Source: Leptospiria bacterium
GTDB taxonomy: Bacteria > Spirochaetota > Leptospiria > Turneriellales > CBDBES01
DNA length: 64,000 bases
Direction: 5' to 3'
Assembly (NCBI GenBank): GCA_965261485.1
Contig: CBDHCY010000005.1
Location: forward strand, 333,813 to 397,812
Positions 37,733 to 38,782 of this stretch are shown one piece after another. Both the position numbers and the translations under genes were made by a program. The notes under the pieces were generated by a model. That model had not been told where the DNA came from. It saw only the letters and a program-made list of their open reading frames with translations, and made no database searches. Position 1 is the first letter of the stretch. Every line of letters starts with the position of its first letter.

Positions 37733-38782
37733 ATGGCAAAGCTAAACCAACACGACATCATAACCAAACAAGTTTTATCACAAAAAACTTATGCGGTAGA
37801 TTTTCTTAAAAATGCTCTGCCTAGAGAGATCACATCAGAGCTAGACTTTACAAAATTACAAATAGAGAAAGGGTGCTTTATTGATGCAACAGATCAAGAA
37901 CGATTCACTGATATTCTCTACAGCGTACCTACAAAAAAGCAATCAGATTCAGAACATTCGGAATCTTCGGAATCAAAAAGGCTGGGCGTTTTTTGTTTGA
38001 TAGAACATAAATCGTATAAAGAAAAAAATATTCATTCACAACTTCTCATGTATTTAGCTGGAATTTACAAAACGAGTAGTATGCCCGTGATTCCTTTAGT
38101 GCTTTATCACGGAAAAAAGGAGTGGGATATTCCTACGCTCTTCAGCAGTTCTTTGGTGATTCCTGAGCATCTGAGAAAATCTTTACAAAAATATATACCA
38201 GACTTTCACTATGAGCTACTTGATCTTCGTTCAGATAAAACAGAGTTCACTGATTTTTCTGTGGCTGTACAGGCATTTTTAAAAAGTCTACAGGATATTT
38301 GGTTTTTATCGAGCAGGTCACGCTTAGAAGATCTTTTCAAAGATTATTTTGCACGAATCTCTCAAGAGAATAAGAAAATGCTTGATGTTTTATTGAACTA
38401 TATTATTACTAGCACTGGCGAGTTTACTATTGATTTTATTGTAAAGAGTGCGGTGGAATACATCTCACCAAATGCAGGAGGGGATGTGGAAAGCATTGCA
38501 AGAAAACTAATAACTGAGGGCATAACTAAGGGCATAACTAAGGGCAGAGCTGAAGGCATGACTAAGGGTAGAGCTGAAGGCATGACTAAGGGTAGAGCTG
38601 AAGGCATGACTAAGGGTATGACTAAAGGCAGAGCTGAAGGTATGACTAAGGGCAGAGCTGAAGGTATGACTAAAGGCGTGGCTAAGGTAGCTCAAGGTCT
38701 CTTGAAAGAGGGCATCTCTATTAAAGTGATCTCAAGAAGCACCGGTCTTTCTATAGAAGAGATTGAGCATTTACGATCATAG
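37733..38782 (+). CDS. Rpn/YhgA-family PD-(D/E)XK recombination-promoting nuclease (often annotated as 'putative transposase')
   Basis: The N-terminal HDIITKQVLSQKTYAVDFLKNALP, FTDILYSV, and LIEHKSY (D...E.K nuclease core) match my recollection of the YhgA/TIGR01784 family. C-terminal EG..KG repeats are followed by LLKEGISIKVISRSTGLSIEEIEHL, as is typical for this family. Confidence 0.7.
   Translation: MAKLNQHDIITKQVLSQKTYAVDFLKNALPREITSELDFTKLQIEKGCFIDATDQERFTDILYSVPTKKQSDSEHSESSESKRLGVFCLIEHKSYKEKNIHSQLLMYLAGIYKTSSMPVIPLVLYHGKKEWDIPTLFSSSLVIPEHLRKSLQKYIPDFHYELLDLRSDKTEFTDFSVAVQAFLKSLQDIWFLSSRSRLEDLFKDYFARISQENKKMLDVLLNYIITSTGEFTIDFIVKSAVEYISPNAGGDVESIARKLITEGITKGITKGRAEGMTKGRAEGMTKGRAEGMTKGMTKGRAEGMTKGRAEGMTKGVAKVAQGLLKEGISIKVISRSTGLSIEEIEHLRS
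38518..38685 (+). repeat. in-frame 12/24-bp tandem repeats inside the rpn-like gene (GITK x2, then KGRAEGMT-type units x5-6)
   Basis: GGCATAACTAAG occurs twice, followed by repeated GGYAGAGCTGAAGGYATGACTAAR units read directly from the sequence. Confidence 0.9.

Follow-up and report, generated by a model that had tools for sequence, protein, structure and literature searches.

The locus analysed here lies in a 64,000-nt stretch of contig CBDHCY010000005.1 from a Leptospiria bacterium, hereafter the window. At the centre of the locus stands rpn, an open reading frame (ORF) of 349 codons whose limits were confirmed, flanked by two homologous cassettes that each carry a GLUG-like gene. The upstream GLUG-like gene is followed by an array of 46-nt units and then by rpn, and a perfect octamer tract heads the downstream cassette (Table 1). 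The initial annotation had placed the gene between two cassettes, and the 5' regions of these cassettes (33946-34554 and 38875-39497) are 91% identical. The Rpn protein shows no differences from a protein (P0122) recorded on a 2,133,161-bp contig, and the FtsK protein of the window is also identical to one on that contig. Since the best named relatives of FtsK belong to Turneriella and other Leptospirales (~70% identity), the host is an uncultured Leptospirales-like spirochaete with a small, low-GC genome. The gene itself is intact and belongs to the known Rpn nuclease family. It is an ordinary gene, and what is unusual is its setting in repeated surface-protein modules. Our analysis suggests that it probably functions as a gene-within-gene toxin-antitoxin nuclease, in which a long product, RpnL, and a short product from an internal start, RpnS, would pair through a repeat-bearing helix.

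The assignment to the Rpn/YhgA-like family (PF04754, TIGR01784, COG5464) is firm. PF04754 (YhgA-like) matches residues 5-191 with E=1e-33 and 117.1 bits against a threshold of 21, and TIGR01784 (Rpn family recombination-promoting nuclease/putative transposase), the model on which the initial annotation had expected the protein to be placed, reaches 58.9 bits, above its cut-off of 52.1. The PD-(D/E)XK signature proposed there can also be located in the ORF: FTDILYSV holds D60 (37910-37912), and LIEHKSY holds E91 (38003-38005) and K93 (38009-38011). An alignment of 86 homologues, the most distant at 22% identity, shows no variation at D60 and E91. The consensus at the glutamate motif is EHKSY, so that K93 is the consensus residue, and H92 and S94 are kept in at least 90% of the sequences. 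Pairwise ratios of nonsynonymous to synonymous substitution (dN/dS) among the paralogues, calculated over residues 1-247, range from 0.10 to 0.29. These values point to purifying selection on the nuclease domain, and the rpn copies are therefore not decaying relics.

The AlphaFold2 model of the full-length protein has a mean predicted local distance difference test (pLDDT) score of 86 and a predicted template modelling score of 0.75. It consists of an α/β nuclease core with pLDDT above 90, a helical middle region, and a C-terminal part in which a long helix (248-293 and 303-325, interrupted by a low-confidence stretch at 294-300) precedes two short helices. A Foldseek search of the whole model against the PDB gave no significant match, and no full-length Rpn structure was among the matches; the best weak ones, with E above 0.2, include the PD-(D/E)XK-type nucleases McrBC (7vsr), Card1 and Cap4. 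The C-terminal part is more informative. A profile of close and medium-distance homologues matches 7TH0_A at E=3.2e-5, and 7TH0, titled 'Recombination-promoting nuclease RpnA', is the crystal structure of the 49-residue RpnA-S. When residues 252-349 were modelled alone, they formed a single continuous helix (2-74) followed by two short helices, and the tail of this model superimposes on 7TH0 over 42 columns with a target-normalised TM-score of 0.84, a root-mean-square deviation of 0.9 Å and 33% identity. Because the Foldseek E-values are not significant for so short a domain, the sequence profile is the stronger evidence for homology. In addition, PF27070 (HTH_Rpn_C) is precomputed for close relatives of the window protein. 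Profile and model together indicate that the C-terminal module is homologous to E. coli RpnA-S.

Other identities were considered and rejected. FliH models reach only 18-42 bits against cut-offs of 180-293, the best of them (38-42 bits) over the repeat region only, and Yae1_N matches residues 274-309 only (29.5 bits), inside the repeats. Both were dismissed because the resemblance is one of GxxxG periodicity alone, with no such domain outside the repeats. A serine recombinase or invertase was rejected as the N-terminus is of the PD-(D/E)XK type; only the long helix and the helix-turn-helix (HTH) resemble resolvase helix E plus HTH (Foldseek matches to 2r0q and 2gm4, E above 0.7). A single-sequence phmmer search against the PDB returned only low-complexity matches to eL29 and L19e.

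Published work on the family gives this anatomy a meaning. Zhong et al. 2023 (PNAS, PMC10400941) described rpn genes as genes-within-genes, in which translation from an internal start yields RpnS, a small inhibitor of the toxic endonuclease RpnL. In their study RpnA-S is a dimer that forms a three-helix bundle, strains, those of Leptospira interrogans included, differ greatly in the number of 4-aa repeats, and an RpnL is blocked only by an RpnS of equal repeat number (Fig. 4D, PMC10400941). They also reported phage protection by a plasmid-encoded Rpn (PMC10400941). What the initial annotation had stated, an internal-start inhibitor of a toxic nuclease with a role in phage defence, is thus accurate, and its central idea, that repeat length tunes nuclease activity, had already been published for the family (PMC10400941). 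The initial annotation is right on almost all points, and the core observation at this locus is already explained by published work.

The repeat tract of the window gene, cut unit by unit, consists of 14 consecutive 12-nt units in the order ITEG ITKG ITKG RAEG MTKG RAEG MTKG RAEG MTKG MTKG RAEG MTKG RAEG MTKG. Tandem Repeats Finder (TRF) scores it at 140-215, and a repeat search found 13 in-register copies spaced 12 nt apart. The tract had been described as near-perfect 24-bp repeats encoding KGRAEGMT five to six times. The tract is real, but its basic unit is 12 nt and KGRAEGMT occurs exactly five times; the near-identity claimed for the DNA is complete in three of the five RAEG-MTKG 24-nt units (38546-38617), whereas the other two differ at synonymous third positions only. 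A long 4-aa repeat tract is a family-wide trait and not a peculiarity of this gene, as runs of 10-15 xxxG units are present in many distant family members, in a sample biased by a search seeded with repeat-region words. Among the sampled homologues the 14 units of the window copy lie near the top of the range (maximum 15). At least 20 distinct Rpn proteins, 84-95% identical, are recorded on the 2.13-Mb contig, whereas scans of two contig collections (genome_contigs and metagenome_contigs) yielded no relatives above 39% identity. In 20 paralogues compared, the tracts hold 2, 3, 6, 8, 9, 10, 11, 12 or 14 full units, that of the window copy being the longest, and all 20 differ in unit order. Over 27 close homologues with 2-14 units, the length differences are exact multiples of 4 aa and the h-x-x-G pattern is kept.

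A candidate internal start lies in the position expected for an RpnS. The sequence GCAGGAGGGGAT-GTG stands eight codons before the first repeat unit, with an in-frame GTG at V252, and the resulting distance of eight residues from V252 to the repeats falls within the range of 8-20 reported for RpnS proteins (PMC10400941). Ten DNA copies were compared, namely that of the window and those on the related-strain contigs L013-L017. AGGAGG is kept in all of them, and codon 252 is ATG in six and GTG in four; of the 20 paralogues of the 2.13-Mb contig, 8 have M and 12 have V at residue 252. In the more distant homologues on contigs L018 and L019 (52-57% identical), GGAGG-N7-ATG is retained with the methionine moved by one residue. 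The 3' end of the 16S rRNA is CACCTCCTTA, and its duplex with the internal AGGAGG, at -10.8 kcal/mol, is stronger than that formed by the 20 nt upstream of any of the 41 ORF starts in the window. A 98-aa RpnS is likely made from this start. Contig L019 also carries, at 7590-7805 on the minus strand, a free-standing RpnS-like gene of 71 aa with six RAEG/RTEG units, an HTH tail and a GAAGGAG ribosome-binding site. It is divergent from a full-length rpn, its start is equivalent relative to the repeats, and it resembles the small RpnSs homologues of E. coli, which Zhong et al. describe as lying downstream (PMC10400941).

Table 1. Features of the rpn locus and its flanks in the window (blank cells, nothing recorded)
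Feature	Position	Strand	Basis
rpn (RpnL, 349 aa), full-length Rpn/YhgA-like nuclease	37733..38782	+	ORF; PF04754; TIGR01784
PD-(D/E)XK nuclease domain, residues 5-191, D60/E91/K93	37745..38305	+	Pfam envelope, alignment, AlphaFold2, dN/dS
Internal Shine-Dalgarno-like AGGAGG	38476..38481	+	Conserved in 10/10 close DNA copies
Predicted RpnS, 98 aa, from GTG 38486 (V252)	38486..38782	+	Codon 252 comparison, distance to repeats
14 tandem 12-nt units, ITEG/ITKG/RAEG/MTKG	38510..38677	+	Unit listing, TRF, repeat-search family D1; modelled as long helix
Conserved C-terminal tail: end of long helix and two short helices, HTH-like; HTH_Rpn_C / RpnA-S homologue	38678..38779	+	Profile, Foldseek, PF27070
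Conserved ~60-nt upstream region of rpn copies, probable promoter / 5' leader	37673..37732	+	Ten-copy upstream comparison, sliding identity
Upstream octamer tract (ACAGAACT)x17 (17.1 copies)	34059-34196		
Upstream GLUG-like gene	34429-36414		
46-nt tandem array, ~25 units, between upstream GLUG-like gene and rpn	36452..37621	.	TRF; context, functional link to rpn not shown
Downstream octamer tract (ACAGAACT)x18.8, heads downstream cassette	38989..39138	+	TRF, 100% matches; context
Downstream GLUG-like gene	39372-41390		
Downstream 46-nt array	41419-41851		

Taken together, the data suggest the following scheme. In RpnL, a PD-(D/E)XK DNA endonuclease would be connected through a helical linker with a C-terminal module, which would comprise one long α-helix carrying the 14 four-residue units and a small HTH-like tail. 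RpnS, starting at the GTG behind a strong internal ribosome-binding site, would pair with the same helix of RpnL and keep the nuclease, presumably toxic when free, inactive, by analogy with E. coli RpnA, RpnB and RpnC. A trigger such as phage infection may then free RpnL, which would give the gene a role in defence. The number and order of the units would decide which RpnS fits which RpnL, and the tract could change in steps of 12 or 24 nt by slippage or unequal exchange. In a 2.1-Mb genome that has at least 20 paralogues of 2-14 units, such differences may keep the pairs partly insulated from each other. The gene itself would ride in a tandemly duplicated unit of ~4.4-5 kb made up of the GLUG-like gene, the 46-nt array, rpn and the octamer tract.

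Several observations weigh against this scheme. The pLDDT is only ~50 across the repeat helix, both in the full-length model and in that of residues 252-349. Some unit counts are shared by several paralogues (10 units in five of them), so length alone cannot insulate all RpnL-RpnS pairs. Codon 252 of the window copy is GTG and lies only 4 nt past AGGAGG, a short spacing, and the conservation of AGGAGG is partly forced by a conserved Ala-Gly-Gly peptide. A Shine-Dalgarno motif is missing before 38 of the 41 ORF starts in the window, and initiation driven by such motifs may be unusual in the source bacterium; its absence before the main rpn ATG means nothing for the same reason, as most window genes have none. 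The initial annotation had suggested looking for an internal transcription or translation start upstream of the repeat: a candidate start codon was found, but a scan of the plus strand of rpn revealed no internal sigma-70-like promoter. A sigma-70 scan of the same strand before the gene made no call either. Finally, PADLOC found no defence genes among four flanking ORFs (both GLUG-like genes, 42358-43197 and 43317-43799).

The wider setting was compared with that on the other contigs. On L013, from a related strain, the order GLUG-like gene, array, rpn and octamer tract is repeated three to four times, once every ~4.4 kb, the units being 85-93% identical and the rpn copies being followed by an octamer tract as in the window; on L015 and L016 the order is array-rpn-rpn. 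The gene thus stands between cassettes because it is part of a tandemly duplicated unit of these four elements. The 46-nt arrays, with the unit consensus CGAGTGATGCTTTGCTCTCTGGGCGGAGAGTGCCGATCGCCAGTCA, lie directly 3' of every GLUG-like gene of the window type, even where no rpn follows (as in the downstream array of the window and at 17946-18208 on L013), and none lies beside rpn on L014, L017, L018 or L019. Therefore, the arrays are tied to the cassettes and not to rpn. On L017 and L018, too, a GLUG-like gene lies next to rpn. On L018 (8001-14152), which carries a 52%-identical relative, a GLUG-like gene and rpn are followed by an MmeI-like type IIG restriction-modification gene and an AAA_21/DUF4435 gene, a context that is defence-island-like, unlike that of the window.

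Exchange between paralogues is indicated by the mosaic structure of the window copy, which is identical to the L16b copy over 457 nt (37686-38142) and from ~38333 to 38514 follows the L16a type instead. The mosaic partners are tandem copies on L016 (2059-3012 and 3199-4212), and the L16a match spans the internal-start and early-repeat region. On L013 two of three rpn copies are frameshifted (rpn at 5898-6916 and 14464-15460); this contig is labelled as having 2x coverage, so that sequencing error is possible.

If the repeat were merely slippage-prone low complexity without function, the copies with GTG at codon 252 would make no RpnS, each gene would yield a single full-length protein, and unit number would be of no consequence. 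The GTG with its short spacer, a genome poor in Shine-Dalgarno motifs, the low model confidence across the repeats and the three identical 24-nt units, which indicate very recent slippage, are all compatible with such neutrality. We nevertheless consider it unlikely: the length differences are exact multiples of 4 aa with the h-x-x-G pattern intact, unit types such as RAEG are common to different phyla, and a start codon and Shine-Dalgarno motif are retained in diverged homologues despite a one-residue shift of the methionine; moreover, repeat number matters in the E. coli experiments (PMC10400941). Older annotations such as 'putative transposase' and 'ISNCY family transposase' would make rpn the transposase of a mobile element resembling an insertion sequence (IS). 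Its multicopy state (at least 20 per 2.13 Mb) and a weak match to NF007418, which bears the ISNCY transposase label (44 bits against a cut-off of 583), speak for this identity, which is scarcely credible given the borders of the gene. A search for inverted repeats and target duplications flanking rpn found only chance-level repeats, in agreement with the initial annotation. The homology common to all ten DNA copies is confined to the ~60 nt before the ATG and the ORF itself, ending at the stop codon, and the flanks are shared only within tandem-duplication groups. Zhong et al. came to the same conclusion for the whole family: rpn genes lack inverted repeats and target duplications, and rpn arrays arise from tandem duplication of genomic regions, with 26 copies in one B. 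thuringiensis genome (PMC10400941).

A further alternative takes the neighbourhood as its starting point. The rpn copies might mainly promote recombination of the surface-protein cassettes, and thereby surface variation and not phage defence. The nuclease would nick or cut in or near the 46-nt arrays, and the phase-variable GLUG-like genes would be tandemly amplified, deleted and shuffled independently of RecA. The recurring module order in the window and on L013, the array units directly upstream of seven of the ten close rpn copies, the GLUG-like genes beside rpn even on the more distant L017 and L018, and the mosaic window copy would all suit this idea. Against it, arrays follow every GLUG-like gene of this type with or without rpn, they are missing at the L014 and L017 copies and on L018 and L019, and co-duplication of rpn as a passenger explains the pattern equally well. 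To our knowledge, no sequence-specific activity has been described for Rpn nucleases, and an affinity of RpnL for the TCACGAGTGA box of the flanking arrays is speculation. Rpn proteins do raise RecA-independent recombination, and the duplicated rpn genes may themselves be products of RpnL, as Zhong et al. speculate (PMC10400941). On balance, we judge a mainly recombinational role to be distinctly unlikely. A combined view, in which the expanded family is coupled to surface variation, RpnLs act on the adjacent arrays to drive RecA-independent cassette shuffling, and a code of 2-14 units insulates at least 20 pairs, is improbable; if it were true, individual rpn loci could be fired separately. 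The toxin-antitoxin reading remains the one that we favour.

The elements around rpn show features of their own. The 46-nt unit comprises a conserved box, CGAGTGATGCTTTG, and a variable remainder, and has ~52% GC against ~32% GC in the genome. Further arrays lie on L013 (4790-5831, 9506-9882, 13541-14331 and 17946-18208), L015 (303-1035 and 2078-2325) and L016 (1076-1947). The array was rejected as a structured RNA, with no Rfam match at E<=1 and fold z-scores of -0.26 and +0.83, neither strand being better than shuffled sequence, and as a CRISPR, as it has no spacers. Each GLUG-like start codon is preceded, at a distance of ~230 nt, by a perfect (ACAGAACT)n tract that is itself downstream of TTGACA/TTGACT...TACAAT boxes; the tracts on L013 (7089-7208, 11172-11251 and 15629-15743) hold 10-15 copies. 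In the window, the downstream octamer tract lies within a short leader ORF that starts at ATG 38985, and a terminator-like hairpin follows at 39178-39193. Because an 8-nt unit shifts the reading frame, the tract resembles a phase-variation switch that would operate via the leader ORF.

Elsewhere in the window, the 16S rRNA (31061-32592) and 5S rRNA (42233-42349) genes are both on the plus strand and separated by 9.6 kb, an interval that contains an epimerase gene as well as the complete GLUG-array-rpn-GLUG-array block. The window has no 23S gene, either in this interval or outside it. That the rRNA genes are unlinked is consistent with a Leptospirales-like host. The region 12431-22655 contains five more large ORFs (860, 938, 761, 525 and 583 aa) with a higher GC content of 37-44%. 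Three of them carry 90-nt repeats that encode GGLVG-type (GLUG-like) motifs, and two start sites in this region hold the only strong Shine-Dalgarno-like motifs of the window (gaagaggt). Neither rpn nor the arrays of 46-nt units or the octamer tracts occur with these ORFs.

The gene provides a well-resolved natural case for a recently described mechanism: a nuclease toxin would here carry its antitoxin within itself, matched through a variable 4-aa repeat. Of value are the paralogue series with different tracts and the previously undescribed module that links rpn with phase-variable surface-protein genes and arrays of 46-nt units. As one 2.1-Mb genome supplies at least 20 paralogues and 20 different tracts, a natural series is available for separating unit number from unit order in RpnL-RpnS specificity. 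In the literature searched, we found no account of a regular alternation of rpn with phase-variable surface-protein cassettes and 46-nt arrays, and no later study that connects Rpn with spirochaetes or with surface-protein cassettes. This arrangement offers a concrete place to probe the old claim that Rpn promotes recombination.

Among known systems, E. coli RpnA-E and RpnP2, antiphage nucleases of the RpnL-RpnS gene-within-gene toxin-antitoxin type (Kingston et al. 2017; PMC10400941), are the closest, as they belong to the same Pfam and TIGRFAM family and share the D...ExK core. The C-terminal three-helix module is homologous to RpnA-S (7TH0), the first helix bears a 4-aa repeat of a hydrophobic residue or arginine with charged residues or glycine in both, and both combine a lack of IS ends with multicopy tandem duplication. 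The window protein, however, is ~25-30% identical or less to its E. coli counterparts. It differs from them in its spirochaete host, its 14 units, its internal GTG start and its at least 20 paralogues in a 2.13-Mb genome, and it is embedded in surface-protein cassette modules instead of an evident defence island. Treponema denticola, also a spirochaete, carries many TIGR01784 copies and lends its name to the model (T_den_put_tspse), above whose cut-off the window protein scores; we know of no GLUG/array module in that species. The GxxxG-repeat helices of FliH and Yae1_N share the period-4 glycine repeats in a long helix, a likeness of periodicity only and not of membership. The HsdS subunits of EcoR124I/II provide a functional analogy, drawn by Zhong et al. 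(PMC10400941), in that the number of 4-aa TAEL repeats in a helical spacer alters specificity. HsdS belongs to another protein family, and the specificity set by its repeats is that of DNA spacing, whereas in RpnL and RpnS it would be that of the protein partner.

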